In this document: piece after piece, positions 4,996-15,358 of the stretch
Numbering within the stretch: position 1 is the stretch's first letter
Layout: every line of letters begins with the position of its first letter
Virus genome (UHGV): UHGV-0164984
Direction: 5' to 3' (one strand)
Source: a virus
Length of the DNA stretch: 35,681 bases
The notes under the pieces: model-generated
What the model saw: the letters and a program-made list of their open reading frames with translations, nothing else
The model's database searches: none
What the model was told of the DNA's origin: nothing
Program-made: the position numbers and the translations under genes

Positions 4996-5026
4996 TGGAT
5001 ATCCCAACAACAGGTAGGAAGGAAAT

Positions 5027-5110
5027 ATGTACGTAGATAGCAATGAAAAATTTCATGTTCCGGTAAATCAGAGACCAGCACCGATCCCTGAGCCGAAACC
5101 TGAAATGTAA
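5027..5110 (+). CDS. Proline-rich micro-ORF A (27 aa; MYVDSNEKFHVPVNQRPAPIPEPKPEM)
   Basis: Strong SD AGGAAGG 4-5 nt upstream of ATG; shares an HVP...RP.P.PEPKP motif with two downstream micro-ORFs. Confidence 0.4.
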   Translation: MYVDSNEKFHVPVNQRPAPIPEPKPEM

Positions 5111-5120
5111 GGGAATAGAG

Positions 5121-5600
5121 ATGACTCGAGACGATCTAGCATTCGATATTCATTATTCTTTCTTTCTTGAGAAAATGAATTACACCCTTTTAAATCGGAT
5201 AGACAAGAGCATAACTCTTGTTCTCATTGTCTTGGGCTTTTCTGTTTTTGCGCCATATAGCAATATGTTTATTTTTGGCGCATCTGTAGCTATTTTGTCG
5301 GTGCTTCAATTGGTATACCAATTTGGGCAGGAAGCTGGCTTATCAAAGGAACAGATGCGACAGTATAAAAGGTTGATTGTTGAGTTTTCCTCCCTTTCTG
5401 ATGACGAACTACGCACTCGGTTTTTAAAGGTTCAAGACGCTGATAGTAATCCATGGAGATCTTTACAAGATGCTGCGTTCAAACGGACCTGTATTGCGCT
5501 GGGACGTGTTGATGAGTCAGAAATATCATTCATGCATAGCGTTATCGCATGGTTTGCTGGAGATTTGCCTCGGTCAAAAAGGTGTAATAATGACAAATAG
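5121..5600 (+). CDS. Small membrane protein, two predicted TM helices, unknown function
   Basis: 159 aa; hydrophobic stretch LVLIVLGFSVFAPYSNMFIFGASVAILSVLQLVY; AT-rich; in immunity-adjacent position on strand opposite to cI. Confidence 0.6.
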   Translation: MTRDDLAFDIHYSFFLEKMNYTLLNRIDKSITLVLIVLGFSVFAPYSNMFIFGASVAILSVLQLVYQFGQEAGLSKEQMRQYKRLIVEFSSLSDDELRTRFLKVQDADSNPWRSLQDAAFKRTCIALGRVDESEISFMHSVIAWFAGDLPRSKRCNNDK

Positions 5601-5706
5601 AATTCCCATAATCCCTAACCATGTACCTCCAAAGCCCAGACCACCATCACCAAAGTCACACAGGCTTTATGAGTATGAATTAATAATGGATTCTATATTG
5701 AGATGA
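5590..5706 (+). CDS. Proline-rich micro-ORF B (38 aa; ...IPNHVPPKPRPPSPKSHR...)
   Basis: ATG at 5590 overlaps the upstream gene end; AGGTG SD; motif paralogous to micro-ORFs A and C. Confidence 0.35.
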   Translation: MTNRIPIIPNHVPPKPRPPSPKSHRLYEYELIMDSILR

Positions 5707-5710
5707 CCAA

Positions 5711-5800
5711 ATGAATGCATTTATATATACATGGAAAGAGGATCATATACCCTTAAAACCTCGTCCTTCACCGCCAGAACCGAAGCCAAAATCCCGTTAA
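5711..5800 (+). CDS. Proline-rich micro-ORF C (29 aa; MNAFIYTWKEDHIPLKPRPSPPEPKPKSR)
   Basis: Starts 5 nt after micro-ORF B stop; same HIP.KPRP.PPEPKP motif encoded with synonymous codon differences. Confidence 0.35.
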   Translation: MNAFIYTWKEDHIPLKPRPSPPEPKPKSR

Positions 5801-5837
5801 GTGTTGGGGATCTCCAGATTGTTAAAGAGCGAAGCGT

Positions 5838-5866
5838 CCTATAGGGCGCTTTTTTGTTGCTAACGA
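5838..5866 (+). terminator. Intrinsic terminator ending the rightward accessory operon
   Basis: Stem AAGCGTCC / GGGCGCTT with loop TATA, followed by TTTTTTG. Confidence 0.5.
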
Positions 5867-5929
5867 ATCATCCTGGACTTCATATGCCCCAGGCGGCTAC
5901 TTCGTGGGCGTCCTGCCTGTTCGTTGTTT

Positions 5930-5970
5930 CGCTTGGGTACATTATGTATCTCAAAGGTACATTGTCAAGT
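5930..5970 (-). promoter_or_regulatory. Candidate pL-like early-left promoter with CI operator half-sites
   Basis: On minus strand TTGACA (plus 5963-5968), 16-17 nt, CATAAT/ATAATG (plus 5940-5946); GGTACA half-sites at 5936-5941 and 5956-5961 resemble the cI-cro operators. Confidence 0.45.
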
Positions 5971-5997
5971 ATAAAAAAACCTGCCGAAGCAGGTTCA
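5971..5997 (-). terminator. Intrinsic terminator downstream of cI
   Basis: On minus strand stem AACCTGC / GCAGGTT with loop TTCG then UUUUUUUAU, immediately after the cI stop. Confidence 0.55.
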
Positions 5998-6007
5998 TAA
6001 ACATTGA

Positions 6008-6682
6008 TTAGGCTTTGATTTTGTATCTTCTTGGTTTTCCTGAGAAAATCACTGTACCAATTATAGAGCAATTACCGTTGATCTTAATGTAAGGCTCAGG
6101 CCAGTTTGGGTTTAACGCTTTGAGATAACGCTGTGTCCCATCTTCTATCAACCTTTTGAAGGTGGTTTCACCTGTATCGTGCATCAATGCAATAACGTCG
6201 TCACCGTGGCAGGCAGGTACTTCAGGATCGACAAAAATCATGTCTCCCGGGCGGTACTCATCAATCATTGAATCACCTATCACCCGCAAGATATAAGTCA
6301 TTTCCCCACAGGGTACAGGGCAGGGATACGTTTCTGCTGTGCTCAAATCAACCTCAGAATATCCAACTTCTTTCCATGCTCCGGCCTGTACCCATGATAT
6401 GACAGGGACTAATGTGATTTGTTTATTAGTGATTGAAACATCAGGTTTTTTTGTGATGTTCGTTGTCTGGTGTTCTTGATCGAGCCATCCGACAGGCAGG
6501 TCGAAACATTTTTCGATGTGTCGTGCCATGCTGTCACCGATATTTTTAGTAGCACCATCTCCCATAAACCTGCTGGTCTGGGTTGGCTCGCGATCAATCA
6601 TAGTGGCAAAGGAAGAATTCCCGCCAACACCATCTCTCAGTTTTCTGGCGTTAGACCGCCGGATGTCATGGATTGTTTTCAT
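6008..6682 (-). CDS. CI-type phage repressor (HTH + S24 LexA-like peptidase domain)
   Basis: 224 aa; C-terminal GDSM serine motif and downstream Lys (TFKRL) typical of S24 autoproteolytic repressors; divergent from cro with operators between. Confidence 0.9.
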   Translation of the reverse strand: MKTIHDIRRSNARKLRDGVGGNSSFATMIDREPTQTSRFMGDGATKNIGDSMARHIEKCFDLPVGWLDQEHQTTNITKKPDVSITNKQITLVPVISWVQAGAWKEVGYSEVDLSTAETYPCPVPCGEMTYILRVIGDSMIDEYRPGDMIFVDPEVPACHGDDVIALMHDTGETTFKRLIEDGTQRYLKALNPNWPEPYIKINGNCSIIGTVIFSGKPRRYKIKA

Positions 6683-6688
6683 AACGAA

Positions 6689-6768
6689 ATTAAAACCCTT
6701 GTACCGTTAAGGTACAAGTATCTTGAAGGTTCATTTCAATCATGTAATATGTACACCAGAGGTACATA
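6689..6768. promoter_or_regulatory. Divergent pRM/pR region with palindromic operators
   Basis: Perfect palindrome CTTGTACC-GTTAA-GGTACAAG at 6698-6718; second site ATGTAC-N7-GTACAT at 6749-6767; pR-like TTGAAG (6723-6728) 16 nt TAATAT (6745-6750). Confidence 0.55.
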
Positions 6769-6772
6769 TTGT

Positions 6773-6973
6773 ATGAAAGCGTATTGGGACTCTTTAACCA
6801 AAGAACAGCAGGGCGAGTTGGCCGGAAAAGTTGGCTCAACACCTGGCTACTTACGGCTGGTTTTCAATGGCTATAAAAAAGCCAGTTTTGTGCTGGCTAA
6901 AAAACTTGAGCAATGCACGTCAGGTGCAATTACGAAATCTGACTTAAGACCGGATATCTATCCGAAAGATTAG
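6773..6973 (+). CDS. Cro-like HTH regulator
   Basis: 66 aa ORF divergent from cI immediately downstream of operator region; HTH-like GKVGSTPGYLRLVFNGYKK. Confidence 0.75.
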   Translation: MKAYWDSLTKEQQGELAGKVGSTPGYLRLVFNGYKKASFVLAKKLEQCTSGAITKSDLRPDIYPKD

Positions 6974-7004
6974 CAGAACACTTTCAATTTTTAACCACAG
7001 AACG

Positions 7005-7574
7005 ATGAGGCTAATCGTGGGTAAGCATCACTGGAAAATAGAAAAACAGCCTGAGTGGTACGTGAAAGCTGTCAGAAAAACTATCGCGGCGTTGCCGGGT
7101 GGTTACGCTGAAGCGGCTGACTGGCTCGATGTAACAGAAAACGCTTTATTCAACCGCCTTCGTGCAGATGGCGATCAGATTTTCCCGCTGGGATGGGCAA
7201 TGGTTTTACAGCGTGCTGGTGGCACTCACTTCATTGCTGATGCTGTGGCGCAGTCTGCAAATGGCGTCTTTGTGTCTCTTCCTGACGTCGAGGATGTGGA
7301 CAACGCCGATATTAACCAGCGTCTGCTGGAAGTCATTGAACAGATCGGCAGTTATTCAAAACAGATTCGTTCAGCAATCGAAGACGGTGTAGTGGAACCG
7401 CATGAGAAGACAGCAATTAACGACGAGCTGTATCTCTCAATTTCGAAGCTGCAGGAGCATGCAGCACTTGTCTACAAAATTTTTTGCATTTCAGAAAGTA
7501 ATGACGCCCGCGAGTGTGCAGCTCCGGGCGTCGTGGCGTCGATTGCTTCTGGTTGTGGAGAAACTAACGCATGA
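7005..7574 (+). CDS. CII-like phage regulatory protein (e14 YmfL-like, 189 aa)
   Basis: Position after cro; size and [19 protein letters not shown] segment resemble CII/CP76-type regulators as I recall them; alternative GTG start at 7017 with GAGG SD. Confidence 0.55.
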
Positions 7575-7909
7575 ACAGTTTAACAACACACTACCGTCGC
7601 TCGCAACTGATTGCGCTTCCTGTACCGGGTGGAAAAGCGAAGGTGGAATATTGCTATGCAGTGAATGTACCAGGTGACAGGGAAATTGTAACCCACAGCT
7701 TTGCAGAGTGGGCTGTGGGTGATTTCAACCGGCAGAAGGAGACAGTCCTTTGCGACAAGTTAACCGCTGGTTCAAAGATCACTACGGAGTGCCCGTCAGA
7801 GTCATTCGTTGGGAGCCGGAAACACAACGGGTTATCTACCTCCGCGAAGGTTATGAGCATGAATGCTTCAGTCCGCTCGAACAGTTTCGTCGTAAATTCA
7901 GGGAAATAG
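7571..7909 (+). CDS. Hypothetical protein (e14 YmfM-like size, 112 aa); C-terminal third of doubtful coding quality
   Basis: ORF in operon position; N-terminal two-thirds protein-like, C-terminal part low-complexity; an alternative-frame ORF overlaps (see findings). Confidence 0.45.
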
Positions 7910-7918
7910 AGGTCGGTC

Positions 7919-8860
7919 ATGAGCACTAAATTAACCGGCTATGTATGGGATGGTTGCGCTGCATCAGGCATGAAGTTATCCAGCGTGGCAATTATGGCCC
8001 GCCTGGCTGATTTCAGTAATGACGAAGGTGTGTGCTGGCCATCAATTGAAACCATTGCCCGTCAGATTGGCGCGGGGATGAGTACCGTCAGAACGGCTAT
8101 CGCACGGCTGGAAGCAGAAGGCTGGTTAACGCGTAAGGCGCGTCGCCAGGGTAACCGCAATGCGTCGAATGTTTATCAGCTTAACGTTGCGAAGCTTCAG
8201 GCAGCGGCATTTTCTCAACTGTCAGATTCTGACCCGTCAAAATCTGACGCATCAAAATCTGACCCGTCAAAATTTGATGCGTCGAAATCTGGCAAAAAAG
8301 CGGGTTTTCACCCGTCAGAATCTGGCGGGGATCCGTCAGTAAAATCAAAACATGATCCGTCAGATAAAAAACCTTCTCGTCCGGACGCTTCGCAACCGGA
8401 CACGCAGACGGCTGAACAGGATTTTTTAACTCGCCATCCTGATGCGGTTGTATTCAGCCCTAAAAAGCGCCAGTGGGGAACGCAGGATGATTTGACCTGC
8501 GCACAGTGGCTCTGGAAAAAAATCATCGCCCTGTACGAGCAGGCCGCCGAATGTGACGGCGAGGTGGTTCGTCCCAAAGAACCTAACTGGACAGCCTGGG
8601 CAAACGAAATTCGCCTGATGTGTGTGCAGGATGGTCGTACTCACAAACAAATCTGCGAGATGTACAGCCGCGTCAGCCGCGATCCGTTCTGGTGCCGTAA
8701 CGTGCTCAGCCCGTCGAAGTTGCGGGAAAAATGGGATGAGCTTTCCCTGCGCTTATCGCCGTCCGTCAGCACGCACACAGAAAAACGTGAAGACCCGTAC
8801 TTCAAAGCCAGTTACGACAACGTGGACTACAGCCAGATCCCGGCAGGATTCAGGGGGTGA
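7919..8860 (+). CDS. Replication initiator (O-like, N-terminal HTH; internal iteron-encoded linker)
   Basis: 313 aa; N-terminal winged-helix-like region (…WPSIETIARQIGAGMSTVRTAIARLEAEGWL…); tandem DNA repeats inside the gene; position after cII-like gene. Confidence 0.75.
   Translation: MSTKLTGYVWDGCAASGMKLSSVAIMARLADFSNDEGVCWPSIETIARQIGAGMSTVRTAIARLEAEGWLTRKARRQGNRNASNVYQLNVAKLQAAAFSQLSDSDPSKSDASKSDPSKFDASKSGKKAGFHPSESGGDPSVKSKHDPSDKKPSRPDASQPDTQTAEQDFLTRHPDAVVFSPKKRQWGTQDDLTCAQWLWKKIIALYEQAAECDGEVVRPKEPNWTAWANEIRLMCVQDGRTHKQICEMYSRVSRDPFWCRNVLSPSKLREKWDELSLRLSPSVSTHTEKREDPYFKASYDNVDYSQIPAGFRG
8231..8373 (+). repeat. Iteron-like direct repeats (putative replication origin) inside replication initiator gene
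   Basis: About 15-bp units GACCCGTCAAAATCT / GACGCATCAAAATCT / GACCCGTCAAAATTT / GATGCGTCGAAATCT (8231-8290), further CCGTCAG-containing copies to about 8373, followed by A-rich stretch. Confidence 0.6.
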
Positions 8861-8862
8861 TC

Positions 8863-9351
8863 ATGAGTCTGTTAAATGACGTTCAGAAATTCATTGAAGC
8901 CCATCCGGGGTGTACTTCCGGAGACATTGCGGATGCTTTTGCTGGTTACTCACGGCAGCGCGTTCTGCAGTCAGCAAGCAAGTTACGTCAGAGTGGGCGT
9001 GTGGCTCACCGTTGTGAAGGAGATACACGCAGACATTTCCCGCGCCTGACTGAGAGAGCGCAGGAACCGGAACCACAACCAGTTCGTGAAACCAGACCTG
9101 TGCGCAATTTCTATGTCGGCACTAACGACCCGCGGGTGATTTTGTGCCTGGCCCGCCAGGCGGAAGAACTGGAGTCCAGGGGCTTATTTCGTCGTGCTGC
9201 AACCGTGTGGATGGCGGCATTCCGTGAAAGCCACTCCCAGCCAGAACGAAACAATTTTCTGGCGCGTCGTGAGCGGTGCTTACGGAAAAGCAGCAAGCGC
9301 GCTGCATCGGGTGAAGAGTGGTATCTGTCAGGGAATTACGTGGGGGCTTAA
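8863..9351 (+). CDS. Putative transcriptional regulator with PerC-like C-terminal region
   Basis: ATG at 8863 with GGGGG SD; C-terminal LARQAEELESRGLFRRAATVWMAAFRESHSQPERNNFLARRERCLRK resembles the PerC/Pch family as I recall it. Confidence 0.5.
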   Translation: MSLLNDVQKFIEAHPGCTSGDIADAFAGYSRQRVLQSASKLRQSGRVAHRCEGDTRRHFPRLTERAQEPEPQPVRETRPVRNFYVGTNDPRVILCLARQAEELESRGLFRRAATVWMAAFRESHSQPERNNFLARRERCLRKSSKRAASGEEWYLSGNYVGA

Positions 9352-9677
9352 TGACGACGTTAACTCAATGCCAGCAGCAGGTGCTGGATATGCTGATTTC
9401 TTATCAGAAAGAACGTGGCTTCCCACCAACCAATCAGGAGGTGGCAACCATGCTGGGATACCGTTCGGTGAATGCAGCGGTGGAGCATCTTCGTGCTCTG
9501 GAGAAAAAAGGCGTCATCACGATAAAGCGTGGCGTGGCCCGGGGGATAACGCTTCATACCGCGGTGAAGGACGACGACAGCGAGGCGGTCGGGATTATCC
9601 GCTCACTGCTTGCCGGTGAGGAAAACGCCAGGCTGCGTGCAGCCCACTGGTTACATGAGAGGGGCCTGAAAGTATGA
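9351..9677 (+). CDS. LexA N-terminal DNA-binding-domain-like protein (no peptidase domain)
   Basis: LTQCQQQVLDMLISYQKERGFPPTNQEVATMLGYRSVNAAVEHLRALEKKGVI parallels the LexA winged-helix domain; TAATG stop-start overlap with upstream gene. Confidence 0.6.
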   Translation: MTTLTQCQQQVLDMLISYQKERGFPPTNQEVATMLGYRSVNAAVEHLRALEKKGVITIKRGVARGITLHTAVKDDDSEAVGIIRSLLAGEENARLRAAHWLHERGLKV

Positions 9678-10063
9678 AGCTTATTCTGCCTTTTCCGCCC
9701 AGCGTGAACACGTACTGGCGACACCCCAACAAAGGGGCGTTTGCTGGTAAGAGCCTGATAAGCACGGCGGGGCGAAAATTCCAGAGCGCGGCGTGCGCAG
9801 CAATAGTTGAGCAGTTACGTCGTCTGCCGAAACCAACGTCGGCACCTGCTGCAGTGGAGATCGTGTTGTTTCCACCGGATAACCGGATCCGCGATCTGGA
9901 CAACTATAACAAGGCGCTGTTTGACGCCCTGACCCACGCGGGTGTGTGGGAAGACGACAGTCAGGTGAAAAGAATGCTGGTGGAGTGGGGACCGGTTATC
10001 CCGAAAGGGAAGGTCGAGATCACTATCAGTAAGTATGAGAAACCGGCGGGTGCAGCCGCCTGA
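9674..10063 (+). CDS. RusA-family Holliday junction resolvase
   Basis: 129 aa; LPFPPSVNTYWRH...DLDNYNKALFDALTHAGVWEDDSQV matches RusA signature with catalytic Asp cluster. Confidence 0.85.
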   Translation: MKLILPFPPSVNTYWRHPNKGAFAGKSLISTAGRKFQSAACAAIVEQLRRLPKPTSAPAAVEIVLFPPDNRIRDLDNYNKALFDALTHAGVWEDDSQVKRMLVEWGPVIPKGKVEITISKYEKPAGAAA

Positions 10064-10082
10064 TTAAGAGGAGAAACGAAGT

Positions 10083-10880
10083 ATGAATAATCTGATGGTT
10101 ATTGATGGTATTGAAGTTCGTCGTGATGCTTATGGGCGTTACAGCCTGAACGATCTGCACAGGGCTGCCGGTTCTCTGGATAAGCATAAGCCTGCATTCT
10201 GGCTCCGCAATGAGCAAACTGAACGTTTAATAAGCGAGTTGCAGATTTGCAACTCGGTCAATATAGAGCCAGTTAACGTTATTCGTGGCGGAAATAACCA
10301 GGGGACGTATGTCTGCAAAGAACTGGTGTATGCCTATGCAATGTGGATAAGCCCGTCATTCCATCTTAAGGTGATCCGTACTTTCGACATGGTAACCAGC
10401 GCACCGGAAAAATTATCCGGACAGGCTGCTGACAAGATGCAGGCTGGTGTGATTCTGCTGGACTTTATGCGCCGGGAATTAAATCTGTCTAACTCTTCAG
10501 TGCTTGGTGCCTGTCAGAAACTCCAGGAGGCTGTTGGCTTACCGAATTTGGCACCGCGCTATGCCATTGATGCTCCTGCTGACGCGCCTGATGGCTCAAG
10601 CCGCCCCACGCTGTCACTGAGTGCACTGCTGAAGCAGTATGGTATCCGCCTGACAGCTAATCAGGCATATCACCAGATGGCGAAGCTGGGGATCGTTGAA
10701 CAACGTGAACGATACAGCCGCACTGCGATTAACAACATCAAAAAATTCTGGTCGCTGACGGCGAAAGGCTGCATGTTCGGCAAAAACATCACCAGTCCCG
10801 CAAATCCGCGCGAGACGCAGCCGCATTTCTTCGAATCCCGATTCCCTGAGCTGTTAAAGCTGCTCGATACCGTTCATTGA
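10083..10880 (+). CDS. KilA-N domain protein (antirepressor-like)
   Basis: N-terminal YSLNDLHRAAG...KPAFWLRNEQTERLI is the KilA-N signature; C-terminal domain unknown. Confidence 0.75.
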   Translation: MNNLMVIDGIEVRRDAYGRYSLNDLHRAAGSLDKHKPAFWLRNEQTERLISELQICNSVNIEPVNVIRGGNNQGTYVCKELVYAYAMWISPSFHLKVIRTFDMVTSAPEKLSGQAADKMQAGVILLDFMRRELNLSNSSVLGACQKLQEAVGLPNLAPRYAIDAPADAPDGSSRPTLSLSALLKQYGIRLTANQAYHQMAKLGIVEQRERYSRTAINNIKKFWSLTAKGCMFGKNITSPANPRETQPHFFESRFPELLKLLDTVH

Positions 10881-10881
10881 G

Positions 10882-11877
10882 GTGACCGTGAGAGCACTAC
10901 TGACCCCTGAAATTGCCCCGCGTATGGGGATCGTATTGTTCAGGCCAGGTTCAGAGCTGATGCCCCTGTTTATGCAGGGGCGTGTCCTGCTGGAGCCTGA
11001 GCCGGAACGTTACTCATCTTTCGCCAGTGGTGCCGTTCCGGCGGCATCACAACCGCTGGCGGATGATCCTGCCGTTCGGGCCGTGTTCCGCAATGAGGCA
11101 GTGATCCGTCGTGCTGGTGGCGTGGAATGTCTTGAAAGCTGGTTACTTCGTGAAAAAGGCTGCCAGTGGCCTCATTCCGACTGGCACAGCGAGAACATGA
11201 CCACAATGCGACACGCTCCGGGCGCAATCCGTCTGTGCTGGCACTGCGATAACCAGCTGCGCGATCAGTTCACGGAACGGCTGGAATCAATGGCAACGGA
11301 TAACTGTGCCCGCTGGGTGTTGTCTGTTGTGCGTCGGGATCTCGGTTTTGATGACAGTCACGTTGTGACAATGCCGGAACTGTGCTGGTGGTTGATTCGT
11401 AATGATCTGGCGGATGCCTTACCGGAAAGTGCAGCCCGTAAGGCACTGAGATTACCGAAGCCTGTTGTGCCATCTGTCACCCGGGAAAGTGACCTTGTGC
11501 CTTCGGTTCCTGCCACCAGCATCATCCAGGATAAAGCGAAAAAGGTGCTGGCGCTGAAAGTGGATCCGGAGTCGCCGGAGTCTTTTATGTTACGCCCAAA
11601 ACGTCGCCGCTGGGTTAATGAAAAGTACACGCGCTGGGTTAAGACGCAGCCGTGTGCATGTTGTGGAAAGCCTGCTGATGATCCCCACCATCTGATAGGC
11701 CACGGTCAGGGGGGAATGGGTACAAAAGCGCATGATCTCTTTGTGTTGCCTTTGTGCAGAAAGCATCACGACGAGCTGCATGCGGATACCGTGGTATTTG
11801 AAGAGAAGTATGGCTCCCAACTGGAGCTGATATTTCGTTTTATCGATCGTGCGCTGGCAATTGGCGTGCTAGCCTGA
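10882..11877 (+). CDS. DUF968-family prophage protein with C-terminal Cys/His cluster
   Basis: 331 aa; C-terminal PCACCGKPADDPHHLIGHG...LCRKHHDELH; typical of the lambdoid Nin-like region. Confidence 0.7.
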   Translation: MTVRALLTPEIAPRMGIVLFRPGSELMPLFMQGRVLLEPEPERYSSFASGAVPAASQPLADDPAVRAVFRNEAVIRRAGGVECLESWLLREKGCQWPHSDWHSENMTTMRHAPGAIRLCWHCDNQLRDQFTERLESMATDNCARWVLSVVRRDLGFDDSHVVTMPELCWWLIRNDLADALPESAARKALRLPKPVVPSVTRESDLVPSVPATSIIQDKAKKVLALKVDPESPESFMLRPKRRRWVNEKYTRWVKTQPCACCGKPADDPHHLIGHGQGGMGTKAHDLFVLPLCRKHHDELHADTVVFEEKYGSQLELIFRFIDRALAIGVLA

Positions 11878-11894
11878 TTTTGTGGAGAAGGTTG

Positions 11895-12242
11895 ATGCGT
11901 GATATGTATGAAGTATTGGAGCGCTGGGGAGCATGGGCTACAGCAGATAATAGTGGCGTGGACTGGCAGCCGATAGCAGCAGGCTTCAAGGGGCTTTTAC
12001 CTCATGGCAAAAAGTCCCGGATTCAGTGTGATGATGATGAGGGGCTCATGATCGATGGGTGCGTAGCTAGATTAAGAAAGTACAAACCAGAAGAGTATGA
12101 ACTTATCGTTGCCCATTTTGTTATAGGAGTATCAATACGTACCATTGCAAAGAAAAGGAAATGTTCAGATGGGACTGTCAGAAAAGAATTGCAAGCCGCA
12201 ATTGGATTTGTGGAAGGCGTATTTAGTATTTTAAATATGTAA
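11895..12242 (+). CDS. Late-gene antitermination protein Q
   Basis: LERWGAWA...VDW...GFKGLLPHGKKSRIQCDDDEGL...IAKKRKCSDGTVRKELQ resembles Q-antiterminator family; precedes lysis region. Confidence 0.7.
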   Translation: MRDMYEVLERWGAWATADNSGVDWQPIAAGFKGLLPHGKKSRIQCDDDEGLMIDGCVARLRKYKPEEYELIVAHFVIGVSIRTIAKKRKCSDGTVRKELQAAIGFVEGVFSILNM

Positions 12243-12257
12243 GGGGCGGTGCCCCTT
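12230..12257 (-). terminator. Weak hairpin terminator between Q and the convergent MBL gene
   Basis: Stem AAGGGGC / GCCCCTT (12241-12257) with a U-rich stretch on the minus-strand side. Confidence 0.35.
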
Positions 12258-13347
12258 ATAAGCAAACAGCAGCGTAATGTGTTTCAACCTTAGGACTAGA
12301 CGTTAAGCAATTACTAACAGCAACTATTCCAAATTTATTGTTATTATTTGAAAATGAAACTGAACTTTTCATCTTCGCTAATATGCTCCGTGCTTCAGCA
12401 ATCGCAGGTGATTTTTCTTGAGCGTTATCACTTTTAGGCATCGATGTACAGTATAATGCTGATGATTTTGATTTGTAGAGGTCGATCATATCCTGCCGTG
12501 GTAGTGATGATTTATCATAAGTGGTTAAAATCGAAATAGGGTCTTTTTTGATTAGCTTGTTCCATGTTTCCTCATGAAAGCCTGTTTGGGAACCGTGGTG
12601 TGGAAGTTTGAAAATACCTGCTAAGTTTGGTTCTGGACGATTTATTGCATTGCAAACGGAATTCCATCCAGTGTTTTTACTAACTTCTAAATCTGCGCCT
12701 AATAATACTTCATTATTTTCTGATGTTGGAGAGCATATTCTGATTACAACGCAGTAGTGATTAGGATTAACTAATTTAGCAGACATGGCTATTTCGCTAA
12801 AATTTGATGATAATTTTGTAGAGTTTGCGAATTCAAGATCAGAGTTTGTTATATCCATATCAGAAGGCGATAACGAATGTACTTGAATATTCTCGCTGCT
12901 TTTGAATAGTATGCAGTCTTTTTTTGCATGGACAAGACGATCATTTTTGTGCAAATCATAGAATAAAGACATGACCTTGTTTATTTCTTTAGTTTTTGCC
13001 ATATCCTCACCATTAACACTTAGTGCATTAATATATCCTCTAAATTCAGATGTGTTCAATGCTGCGCTAATTACAACTTTTGCATTTTTGCAACTATTAA
13101 TAATTTCGGCTATCCCTTTAATATGATCATCGTGAAAATGACTAATGACTATCAGTTTTACTTCATCTTGTGGATTAACACCTTTTTCTTTCAGATAATC
13201 TAATGCTGCGGGGCGTTTATTATCATTTAAACAGGAATCAATAATCATCCATTCATTTAACCCAAGACGAACGACAATTGATTCGCCAATACCTTTACCA
13301 AAAACAATTGTTTCACAGATAGAGTTTTGAACAGTAGGCACCTGCAT
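12256..13347 (-). CDS. Metallo-beta-lactamase-fold hydrolase (distal gene of AT-rich cassette)
   Basis: 363 aa; HxHxDH motif SHFHDDH encoded at 13123-13143; additional His (KLPHHGSQ); AT-rich. Confidence 0.8.
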   Translation of the reverse strand: MQVPTVQNSICETIVFGKGIGESIVVRLGLNEWMIIDSCLNDNKRPAALDYLKEKGVNPQDEVKLIVISHFHDDHIKGIAEIINSCKNAKVVISAALNTSEFRGYINALSVNGEDMAKTKEINKVMSLFYDLHKNDRLVHAKKDCILFKSSENIQVHSLSPSDMDITNSDLEFANSTKLSSNFSEIAMSAKLVNPNHYCVVIRICSPTSENNEVLLGADLEVSKNTGWNSVCNAINRPEPNLAGIFKLPHHGSQTGFHEETWNKLIKKDPISILTTYDKSSLPRQDMIDLYKSKSSALYCTSMPKSDNAQEKSPAIAEARSILAKMKSSVSFSNNNNKFGIVAVSNCLTSSPKVETHYAAVCL

Positions 13348-13370
13348 TCACCGTATTGCGTAATTTCTAA

Positions 13371-13943
13371 TTATTGTTTAAAAATTCTTCTTAGGCGAAA
13401 TTCGGATACTCTTTTTTCTTGTCCAAATAAAGTTTTTTCCATACCAACATACCAATAAAAAATAGCGTTTTCGACAAGTTTTTGTTGATCGCTTTTACTA
13501 AATTCATCTGAAGAGAACGTTATCTCATCAATGAATTCATGAGAGTTTATATCATATACTCTAGCATGTATTTCTTTATTTGATTTCATATTGACAATTT
13601 TGTCAATTATACCATAAGTATCTAATGCCTTTTCAAGAAAGGTTATTTTTTCTTTAAGTCTTGCCTTGAGTTTTTTATGCTGAGTTCTATTTTTCACTCC
13701 TTTTTGTGTAGATGGGAATGGTTGCGGAGTAGGTATTTCAATTATATTTGTTGAATATTTTGAGCTGCAAGTTTCTTGCTGCTGTTCAAATGTTTCAGAA
13801 TAATTTTCAAAACCTGTCTTAATTATACAGGAAAGAGTTATGTTGTGGGTCTTTACAAATGTTTCAATGTTTTTTTCTTTTTTTGTTACGCAACGTGTAT
13901 TACTAAGGCTGGAAGAATTTTCAGGATAGGTTAATATATTCAT
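13371..13943 (-). CDS. Hypothetical protein (middle gene of AT-rich cassette)
   Basis: 190 aa ORF; start overlaps the upstream gene stop (ATGA at 13940-13943), implying translational coupling. Confidence 0.65.
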   Translation of the reverse strand: MNILTYPENSSSLSNTRCVTKKEKNIETFVKTHNITLSCIIKTGFENYSETFEQQQETCSSKYSTNIIEIPTPQPFPSTQKGVKNRTQHKKLKARLKEKITFLEKALDTYGIIDKIVNMKSNKEIHARVYDINSHEFIDEITFSSDEFSKSDQQKLVENAIFYWYVGMEKTLFGQEKRVSEFRLRRIFKQ

Positions 13944-14695
13944 GATAGAATCCGCTTAAACATTTGTTCATGGCTGAGGATATCATTCTTAATTGCTGCG
14001 GAAATATGTTTTTGAATTATATTTGGGAGTAATTGAGTGAATGCAACAGCGTCACGAATATCTTTCAAAGCTAGATCGTGATTGTATTGAACGTTTAAAC
14101 CAAATACATCTGGACTAACTTTTCTATACGAAGCATAAGAGACATTGATAGCCTCTTTGTAAATTGATTTATCTTCCTTGTTAGAGTTTTCTATTGCAAT
14201 GACTAAATTTCTCATCCCATAATGATATTCAACTTCATCCTGAAGTATTTCTGATTTATTGTGTTCTTGCCAATAAATTTTGGGGACTAATGCATCTCCT
14301 AACTGATTCCAGTTGGTTTCATTATTAAAATGATAATCAAAAAGGGTGTTTATTCCAACAGCTTGTGTCTCAGAATGAGGAAACATAGAAAATATTGATG
14401 ACACTAAGTCTGCCAAGGAATTTTCAAGCCCTGTTTTTTTCAGTTGAAATACTACTTTTGTTGGTATGCACGTAATCTCAATCCAACCGTAATCTGTTGT
14501 TATTGAATCACCATCAAAAGTTGTGTTTGAATTTGCTATATCTTCCTCTCTTAGCAAATCGTATCTTCTAAACCATTCAGATGAAAACATCAATGGAGTA
14601 ATGATGTTAGAGATCCATACAACATTAATCGTATGCTTAATAAGTTTGAAAGTCATAAATTGTTCTTGGCCCTCAGAATGAAAACCTAAGTGCAT
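13940..14695 (-). CDS. Hypothetical protein (first gene of AT-rich cassette)
   Basis: 251 aa ORF; alternative ATG at 14656 preceded by GAGGG; no recognisable motif. Confidence 0.65.
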   Translation of the reverse strand: MHLGFHSEGQEQFMTFKLIKHTINVVWISNIITPLMFSSEWFRRYDLLREEDIANSNTTFDGDSITTDYGWIEITCIPTKVVFQLKKTGLENSLADLVSSIFSMFPHSETQAVGINTLFDYHFNNETNWNQLGDALVPKIYWQEHNKSEILQDEVEYHYGMRNLVIAIENSNKEDKSIYKEAINVSYASYRKVSPDVFGLNVQYNHDLALKDIRDAVAFTQLLPNIIQKHISAAIKNDILSHEQMFKRILS

Positions 14696-14861
14696 TTAGG
14701 CATAGCTACCGCACGACTGTTTTTAATAAAACAATCCGATTGATAGCTATAACCTATTGATGTCTAACGTTATAGTGCATAAGAAACATAGCAAAAATCT
14801 AACGCGTACGCAAAAATTCTTGTAATCTGTTAAGAGTGGTTACTTTGCCACGCAGATTAAC

Positions 14862-14889
14862 CCCGCCGATGAGCGGGTTTTGTTGTTTC
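14862..14889 (+). terminator. Intrinsic terminator upstream of lysis genes (possible tR'-like late terminator)
   Basis: Stem CCCGC / GCGGG with loop CGATGA followed by TTTTGTTGTTTC; no plus-strand gene immediately upstream. Confidence 0.55.
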
Positions 14890-15031
14890 TAGGCCTGGGT
14901 GTTCGTTGGGGTTGGTCTATCCCGTAGTTACCTGTGGCTCGGCTTCTTTTACGTTTCCGCTTCTGATTTGCGGTTCGTGGTACTCCCTCAATTTGCACCT
15001 CCTGTATCGGCGAGGTGAGAGATAACTACAA

Positions 15032-15358
15032 ATGCCTCATAACCCAAATACCTGGCTGGAGTTGGTCCAGAGCTGGTGGCGTGGAGACACACCGCTGGGC
15101 GCAGTGATTATGTCGATTGTTATGGCTGGTTTACGTATTGCCTATTTTGGCGGTGGTGGCGGCTGGAAGCGAAAAGCACTCGAAATTCTACTCTGTGGCG
15201 CTCTGACGCTGACTTTTGCATCCGCTCTTGAGTATGTCGGATGGCCTAAATCACTATCTGTTGCCATTGGTGGTGGCGTTGGGTTGATCGGTGTCGATGC
15301 TATTCGTGGGGCTGCAATGAGAGTAATCGGTAATAAGTTTGGTGGCTCTAAGGAGTAA
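15032..15358 (+). CDS. Holin
   Basis: 108 aa with about three hydrophobic helices, charged C-terminus, GAGGTGAGAG SD, immediately upstream of endolysin. Confidence 0.7.
   Translation: MPHNPNTWLELVQSWWRGDTPLGAVIMSIVMAGLRIAYFGGGGGWKRKALEILLCGALTLTFASALEYVGWPKSLSVAIGGGVGLIGVDAIRGAAMRVIGNKFGGSKE

Follow-up and report, generated by a model that had tools for sequence, protein, structure and literature searches.

A phage-borne LexA-type DNA-binding protein with a helical tail in place of the autoprotease, a candidate RecA-insensitive repressor widespread in E. coli prophages

We analysed a viral DNA of 35,681 nucleotides, UHGV virus genome UHGV-0164984 (the whole stretch is called the window here), and focused on the gene at 9351-9677 on its plus strand, which opens with an ATG at 9351, closes with a TGA ending at 9677 and encodes 108 amino acids. 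The product consists of a LexA-type winged helix-turn-helix (wHTH), which we call the head, followed by a conserved helical tail, and it lacks the LexA autoprotease. Its host element is an SfV/mEp460-like lambdoid prophage, in which it belongs to the early-right operon. The family is already annotated, very widespread and apparently uncharacterised; no functional study of these coliphage proteins turned up in full-text literature searches. We tentatively propose that the protein is a RecA-insensitive LexA-type repressor that re-represses SOS-box promoters, a plausible role whose chances we put somewhat below even. The protein is an independent variant of the "truncated LexA homologue" theme, set apart by its conserved helical tail and by recognition residues that are largely those of LexA.

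A preliminary description, made from the sequence alone, had reported a stand-alone homolog of LexA's DNA-binding domain at this position, and its coordinates, length and domain content all proved exact. The Pfam family LexA_DNA_bind (PF01726) matched residues 1-65 through profile positions 1-65 of 65 (E=2.9e-19). The alignment to a profile hidden Markov model (HMM) of the LexA N-domain, which the preliminary description had named as a check, therefore spans the full profile, at 69 bits versus a gathering cut-off of 23.7 bits. The NCBIfam lexA equivalog TIGR00498 was matched only at profile positions 1-91 of 203, and its score of 70.8 bits fell below the cut-off of 110.95. A sequence search of the PDB returned the E. 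coli LexA N-terminal domain (1lea, E=7e-16), and BLASTP against E. coli LexA gave 43% identity over 90 residues (1-90; E=1e-21). Chance cannot account for a likeness of this degree.

The loss of the autoprotease was equally clear. A Pfam scan of the 108-residue protein gave no Peptidase_S24 match, and alignment with LexAs placed no equivalents of Ser119 or Lys156 in a chain that ends at residue 108. With its autoprotease missing, the protein cannot self-cleave on activated RecA (RecA*). The suggestion that it is a regulator that escapes RecA-dependent cleavage thus stands as far as the LexA-type DNA-binding domain and the absent protease are concerned; the accompanying idea of direct contact with host LexA found no support.

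An AlphaFold2 model of the monomer, built from an 18-sequence family alignment, had a mean predicted local distance difference test (pLDDT) score of 83, and ~88 in the wHTH region. The head was modelled as helices at residues 6-22, 28-35 and 40-52, with strands at 56-58 and 66-68 that form a two-strand wing. Foldseek superposed it on LexA in the LexA-DNA crystal 3jso with a root-mean-square deviation of 1.0 Å over 68 residues at 50% identity, and the values for 3jso, 1lea and 1jhh ranged from 1.0 to 1.3 Å over 67-69 residues. The claimed resemblance to the LexA N-terminal winged helix is therefore borne out in structure as well as in sequence. A short linker leads from the head into a C-terminal helical hairpin (Table 1), for which the model suggests a possible role as a dimerisation or interaction module.

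HMM and BLAST alignments extend beyond the head through the hinge region to the LexA cleavage site (VGIIRSLLAGE versus LVGRVAAGE), so that Ala88-Gly89 aligns with LexA Ala84-Gly85 in a segment that AlphaFold2 predicts to be helical. Across the family the Ala-Gly pair gives way to AN, VG, ER, TR, DD and others. The segment is probably a vestige of a lexA gene cut just past the cleavage site. A role as a substrate cleaved in trans was rejected because the Ala-Gly pair is unconserved in the family.

The family is large. The whole protein matched PHROG 362, annotated "transcriptional repressor" (E=1.4e-59; all of residues 1-108 against profile positions 1-106 of 106), as did the divergent member P0137 (E=3.4e-38). 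NCBI names the family "LexA family protein", and 100% identical E. coli copies are annotated as "LexA family transcriptional regulator". Of 5426 complete E. coli genomes, 2233 (41%) carried near-identical DNA (at least 95% identity), at up to four copies per genome, and the genomic copies were flanked by PerC-family and RusA genes. The LexA-like gene also occurred in 51 phage records, including mEp460, SfV-like Shigella phages, 15 Shiga toxin (Stx) 2c phages and Stx2a phages. Most of these records, that of mEp460 among them, have a 654-bp gene for a Dam-like methyltransferase (L001 5552-6205) between the PerC-like and LexA-like genes; this gene is missing from the window, where its two neighbours abut in TAATG.

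An exhaustive HMMER scan over 1.8 billion cluster representatives recovered relatives of the same architecture down to ~39-40% identity, together with many other short LexA-head proteins. The main homolog clusters contained hundreds to thousands of members of identical length, and assemblies held many truncated or fused variants. BFVD likewise contained many stand-alone LexA-head proteins of 65-150 residues from diverse phages. As a separate observation, many metagenomic proteins of 140-350 residues carried a tandem pair of LexA_DNA_bind domains (P0132, P0133, P0148, P0152, P0153, P0156, P0160, P0163 and P0164), and these may be single-chain pseudo-dimers of the LexA head.

Conservation extends over both parts of the protein. 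Columns that are invariant or nearly so comprise Gln8, Pro26, Glu30, Ser39, Asn41, Lys53, Gly54, Arg64, Gly65 and Ile66 in the head, and Ala97 and Leu101 in the tail; conservation across the family peaks at the positions where the wHTH contacts DNA. The tail keeps a hydrophobic pattern (positions 79, 80, 83, 86 and 87, then 93, 97, 100 and 101) typical of packed helices, and the hairpin is conserved in members down to 39% identity. Among 73 distinct genes of the P0131 clade, the ratio of non-synonymous to synonymous substitution rates (dN/dS) was 0.21 for head and tail alike, which indicates that both are functional.

The recognition helix resembles that of LexA in most of its contact residues. 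PMC3091678 lists five helix-3 residues as LexA DNA contacts, and the window protein retains four of them (Ser39, Asn41, Ala42 and Glu45). The S-x-N-A-A-x-E-H-L helix belongs to the type seen in beta/gamma-proteobacterial LexAs. Since the contact residues are kept and Gln8, Lys53, Arg64 and Gly65 are invariant, DNA binding appears to be under selection.

Comparative analysis covered more than 290 related loci. In all clades the LexA-like gene lay directly 5' of rusA, with one clade having an intervening 67-residue phrog_1212 gene, and DUF968 and Q followed irrespective of whether the replication module was DnaD/O-like, lambda P or DnaC. We rejected the idea that the protein stands in for a missing lambda-P-type helicase loader, as relatives occur in phages with Phage_lambda_P or DnaC-type loaders.

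SOS boxes were scored with a position weight matrix (PWM) built from 21 E. coli LexA sites, with training scores of 13-27 bits. In the P0137 and P0207 clades, which we call the sister clade, all 30 of 30 loci had a canonical SOS box upstream of the LexA-like gene on the same strand. These boxes scored 17.6-30 bits, lay 437-2285 bp from the LexA-like gene and had many different sequences, one being TACTGTTTATTTATACAGTA. The box abuts the -10 element of a sigma70-like promoter that is itself 3' of a terminator (for example, L006 4531-4579, L020 9320-9339, L007 4561-4580 and L032 8536-8555). Some of the operons start with a full RecA homolog (Pfam RecA, 1e-130), and others with a 109-residue UmuD'-like open reading frame (ORF) that has a GFPSPAKDY start, a match to UmuD' in the PDB (E=0.02) and a second SOS box of its own (RecA and UmuD'-like operon coordinates: L032 8598-9680, L024 8172-9308 and L030 8877-9203). 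A DinI homolog (PF06183) was encoded in 17 of 28 P0137-clade loci, and a phrog_1813 protein of 75-82 residues was encoded upstream in all 28 and in the P0207 locus. The LexA-like protein in these operons has 130-135 residues, including an N-terminal extension, and is followed by phrog_1212, RusA, DUF968 and Q.

The association also held when phrog_1813 was the query: the LexA-like gene was adjacent in 80 of 80 loci, with DinI upstream in 78 and an SOS box in 74 of 78. A possible role for the phrog_1813 protein is that of an antirepressor, or of a partner to the LexA-like product. The P0137- and P0207-clade phages yielded no S24-type CI, the detected examples being confined to phages of the window, P0131, P0126, P0159 and P0125 clades. 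The operon of terminator, SOS promoter, dinI and small ORF was absent from the window and from all 82 window-clade loci. The company of RecA, DinI and UmuD'-like genes behind an SOS box, as read from gene order and sequence, argues for a role of the family in the SOS circuit. Together, the RecA or UmuD'-like genes, DinI and the LexA head of the sister clade make up a phage-borne SOS toolkit.

SOS boxes were also seen elsewhere in these phages. A near-perfect box, TACTGTTTTTA(C/T)ATACAGTA (25.8-27 bits), lies inside the coding sequence of an S24-type repressor at L001 1747-1766 (mEp460 gp38) and in about 30 window-clade loci, where it falls in the region of the linker between the helix-turn-helix and the peptidase; it is absent from the CI gene of the window. 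In several clades, another conserved box, TACTGTAAAAATAAACAGTG, is found where a DNA methyltransferase gene begins between Q and the lysis genes (L001 10798-10817, L007 7739-7758 and many others), +2.7 to +6.4 kb from the start of the LexA-like gene; this methyltransferase module is not in the window. In one window-clade phage, the box TACTGTATTTATGAACAGTG (L116 974-993) follows a terminator-like hairpin between rusA and a variant KilA-N gene, which suggests that the KilA-N protein can be LexA-controlled.

The repressor role that we propose would work as follows. The head, derived from gamma-proteobacterial LexA, would bind LexA-box-like DNA with CTGT-type half-sites, and the helical hairpin would take over the dimerising role of the S24 domain, allowing two heads to occupy a palindromic box. 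The protein would be made after CI cleavage and depletion of host LexA, on induction or infection, and could re-occupy the SOS boxes vacated by cleaved LexA, in the host and in co-resident elements, though RecA* persists. The SOS response would be damped or reset during lytic growth, and LexA-controlled competitors would be damped too. In the sister clade, the product would close a negative feedback on the SOS-induced antirepressor/DinI operon and could shut its own promoter. The boldest form of the proposal is a natural SOS "super-repressor": a RecA-proof LexA mimic in the prophages of ~40% of E. coli, including Stx2c and some Stx2a phages, that would silence the LexA regulon of the host again, along with LexA-controlled competitors, once the phage is induced, and that would form a feedback loop with phage DinI and RecA in Klebsiella-type relatives. 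We regard that form as possible, though on the doubtful side.

Several observations weigh against a repressor of SOS-box promoters. Dimerisation through the tail is predicted only from a monomer model, whose predicted template modelling score is 0.56. In the window protein, LexA Pro40 and Glu44 are both replaced by Val. In a comparison of helix 3 between the family and 12-13 catalytically intact LexAs that the HMMER scan had returned, nearly all of the intact LexAs had Glu44, and each member of the family had Val, Ala, Phe, Thr, Leu or Tyr there, so that the replacement of Glu44 is a family signature at the level of sequence. Position 45 is variable among real LexAs, and it is Leu, Ile, Gly or Asp in some family members. 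The changes at Glu44, Pro40 and Glu45 may have shifted the specificity. The 35.7-kb window contained zero exact matches to CTGT-N8-ACAG, and 15 with one mismatch versus 11.4 expected. The PWM found no SOS box of at least 12 bits in the window; the best site, outside the prophage, reached 11.7 bits, less than every training site and less than the shuffled mean maximum of 12.5. Among the 182 loci of the window, P0131, P0126, P0159 and P0125 clades, none had an SOS box within 2.5 kb upstream, and the LexA-like gene of the window is not SOS-regulated but part of the presumed pR operon. The SOS-operon association of the sister clade may itself be positional if an SOS cassette has entered the nin region at its head; Gifsy phages show such an arrangement, with DUF1367 instead of a LexA-like gene in the corresponding downstream place.

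On the pattern and PWM scans, we rejected a cis-acting SOS-box target in this prophage; any SOS-box target would therefore have to lie in the host chromosome or in other elements. The LexA substitutions E45K and E71K, in which negative charge is lost, bind DNA more strongly (bioRxiv 10.1101/2020.07.07.191791). By analogy, Glu44 to Val or Ala could offset weaker dimerisation by raising affinity; a shift in specificity is an equal possibility. The KilA-N gene contains two adjacent weak CTGTC-N8-YCAG sites (10483-10502 and 10509-10528; 8.0 and 6.8 bits), which rank in the window's top seven by PWM score but fall far short of genuine LexA sites and are probably due to chance.

An unlikely but serious alternative is that the protein serves as a transcription factor specific to the phage and that its head has diverged to recognise a private operator, where it would activate or repress a phage promoter and leave the host SOS regulon untouched. 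There is a precedent in gp6 of phage GIL01 (PMC6182141), and the family-wide replacement of Glu44, the variation at positions 40, 42 and 45 (with Leu for Glu45 in a large sub-branch) and the lack of an SOS box in the window are all in keeping with a drifted head; the tight, clade-independent link to rusA-DUF968-Q suggests a phage-internal role. However, no candidate operator emerged from 5000-15100, where inverted-repeat and PWM scans returned the CI operators, origin iterons, sub-threshold sites and one odd palindrome at 14715-14736, and no site of the gp6 type was found near the presumed late promoter (14695-15032) or elsewhere in that interval. Late transcription in these phages is already served by the Q antiterminator. 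Most base-contacting residues remain LexA-like, and the precedent is itself distant, as no sequence similarity between gp6 and the window protein could be detected and gp6 lacks the tail. A private operator would make the family a second independent exaptation of the LexA head after GIL01 gp6, which would be of narrower interest.

We consider it improbable that the protein acts chiefly through protein-protein contacts, its tail, possibly with the vestigial hinge, binding RecA*, host LexA, RusA or small neighbours while the wHTH serves as a scaffold or non-specific DNA anchor. The tail is conserved as strongly as the wHTH, the HMM alignments reach through the LexA hinge to the Ala-Gly position, and rusA always adjoins the gene. 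Sister-clade copies always lie 3' of phrog_1813, an arrangement that recalls the adjacent gp6 and gp7 genes of GIL01, whose gp7 binds LexA. Yet the Ala-Gly pair is unconserved, and it is the DNA-contact columns of the wHTH that are most conserved. The dimer interface of LexA and its RecA-docking surface, moreover, are both in the C-terminal domain, which the 108-residue protein lacks.

A decaying, functionless remnant of a captured lexA gene, to which the sole 5' portion of a lexA-like gene and the truncated and fused variants in assemblies might point, is very improbable given the clusters of hundreds to thousands with identical length, the occurrence in 41% of complete E. coli genomes, an architecture and synteny shared down to 39-50% identity, the dN/dS of 0.21 and the translational coupling within the operon. 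The remaining probability belongs to functions beyond those named here. A part in anti-phage defence was rejected, the PADLOC match being marginal and irrelevant.

The operon context of the gene was read directly from the window (Table 1). A GGGGG run at 9342-9346 ends four bases 5' of the ATG of the LexA-like gene, and in the TAATG at 9349-9353 the last A of the TAA that closes the upstream PerC/YfdN-like gene is also the first base of this ATG. An alternative GTG start at 9318, giving 119 residues, is unlikely, as the large homolog clusters are of 106-108 residues. The stop/start overlaps on both sides indicate that the LexA-like gene is embedded in a translationally coupled gene string. In order, the string comprises a CII-like gene (7005), an ORF of no assigned function (7571), an O-like replication initiator (7919), the PerC/YfdN-like gene (8857), the LexA-like gene (9351), RusA (9674), KilA-N (10083), DUF968/HNH (10882) and Q (11880). 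The PerC/YfdN-like gene (8857-9351) encodes 164 residues with a PerC domain and an N-terminal MarR-like region. To the left of the string lie an S24-type CI repressor gene (6008-6682, minus strand), operators with a GTAC core and a cro-like gene. We found no promoter-like site immediately upstream of 9351 and no convincing plus-strand terminator in 7600-9351. The LexA-like gene is therefore most likely co-transcribed from pR as a delayed-early product.

Table 1. Coordinates of the LexA-like gene, the parts of its product and the associated signals in the window.
Feature	Position	Strand	Basis
Divergent operator/promoter region between the CI and cro-like genes	6683..6773	+	GTAC-core palindromes; presumed pR
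GGGGG Shine-Dalgarno-like run and TAATG overlap	9342..9353	+	Sequence read directly
108-residue gene, LexA DNA-binding domain plus tail	9351..9677	+	ORF list, sequence; Pfam, NCBIfam and PHROG matches
Winged helix-turn-helix, residues 1-68 (= LexA 1-68)	9351..9554	+	PF01726, AlphaFold2, Foldseek
Recognition helix alpha3, residues 40-52, VNAAVEHLRALEK	9468..9506	+	Alignments to E. coli LexA
Linker, residues 69-72, low confidence	9555..9566	+	AlphaFold2 pLDDT <50 at residues 71-74
C-terminal helical hairpin, helices 73-88 and 93-103	9567..9659	+	AlphaFold2 pLDDT about 87-90
ATGA stop/start overlap of the LexA-like gene and rusA	9674..9677	+	Sequence; RusA Pfam E=1.3e-14

Two further features of the prophage were recorded. 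Iteron-like inverted repeats at 8221-8283 (GTCAGATTCTGAC, GTCAAAATCTGAC and GACGCATCAAAATCTGAC/GTCAAAATTTGATGCGTC) lie within the O-like replication gene and probably constitute the origin of the phage. A three-gene insert that separates Q from the lysis genes occupies the minus strand at 12256-14695 and encodes a 363-residue protein of metallo-beta-lactamase fold with weak PADLOC matches to RTasMBL (4e-12) and LmuA (2e-7). The palindrome GACTGTTTTTAATAAAACAATC (14715-14736) stands just 5' of the first gene of this insert, which may be a defence moron with its own operator.

SOS induction drives the induction of prophages and Shiga toxin, mutagenesis and antibiotic tolerance. If the proposed re-repression of SOS-box promoters takes place, lysogens would differ systematically in their SOS dynamics, given that about 41% of sequenced E. 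coli carry the gene, and induced phages could silence LexA-controlled rivals such as antirepressor-dependent prophages and colicins. In that event the family would help to determine, unnoticed so far, SOS amplitude, mutagenesis, the hierarchy of prophages and the induction of Shiga-toxin phages. The sister-clade operons, with their SOS box, phrog_1813, LexA-like gene and, in some, RecA and/or DinI, offer a ready comparative system.

The proposed repressor shares features with several known systems. It has the winged-helix fold of E. coli LexA, with 50% identity over residues 1-68 and the wing residues Arg64-Gly65 common to both, whereas the S24 autoprotease/dimerisation domain of LexA is replaced by a 35-residue helical hairpin; it is also phage-borne, from an early-right operon without an SOS-box promoter. 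The closest functional precedent for a truncated LexA homologue is gp6 of the betatectivirus GIL01, which binds GaCACAn-nTGTGaC and activates the late promoter P3 (PMC6182141). Like the window protein, gp6 is a LexA-type DNA-binding domain without a protease, encoded among the early genes of a temperate phage. Unlike it, gp6 has 66 residues and no tail, comes from a Bacillus-type LexA and reads a non-SOS palindrome via Lys38. BLASTP of the window protein against gp6 (L214 4350-4547) gave no alignment at E<=100, and we therefore take the two to be independent truncations of different host LexAs.

Other phage modulators of the SOS response act at different points. GIL01 gp7 stabilises LexA on DNA and blocks its cleavage (PMC4551915). 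This protein and the DinI homologues are small, phage-borne and directed at LexA or RecA, whereas the window protein would act on DNA; DinI is co-operonic with the LexA-like gene in the sister clade, and the window prophage has no DinI homolog upstream. In Gifsy, the LexA-controlled operon dinI-gftA-irsA encodes an antirepressor that triggers induction (PMC3121763). The sister-clade operon resembles it in its succession of terminator, SOS-box promoter, dinI, an ORF of ~79 residues and a next gene, and in its location 3' of the replication genes. As in Gifsy-type phages, no S24-type CI was detected in the sister clade, whereas the phage of the window carries an S24 CI and lacks an operon of this kind. 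Two proposed correspondences were rejected: irsA is not a member of the LexA-like family, as the Gifsy-2 homologue STM1020 is DUF1367, and GftA has no similarity to phrog_1813.

The behaviour that we predict is that of laboratory forms of LexA. In bacterial two-hybrid systems, SOS promoters are repressed by fusions that join LexA 1-87 to a heterologous dimerisation domain. Non-cleavable LexA, encoded by lexA3 (Ind-), blocks the SOS-dependent induction of Gifsy (PMC3121763). In both cases, as we predict for the window protein, a LexA head stays on SOS boxes despite RecA*. These are, however, laboratory alleles and constructs, whereas the gene of the window is natural and widespread, and has a tail of its own and a specificity that is predicted.

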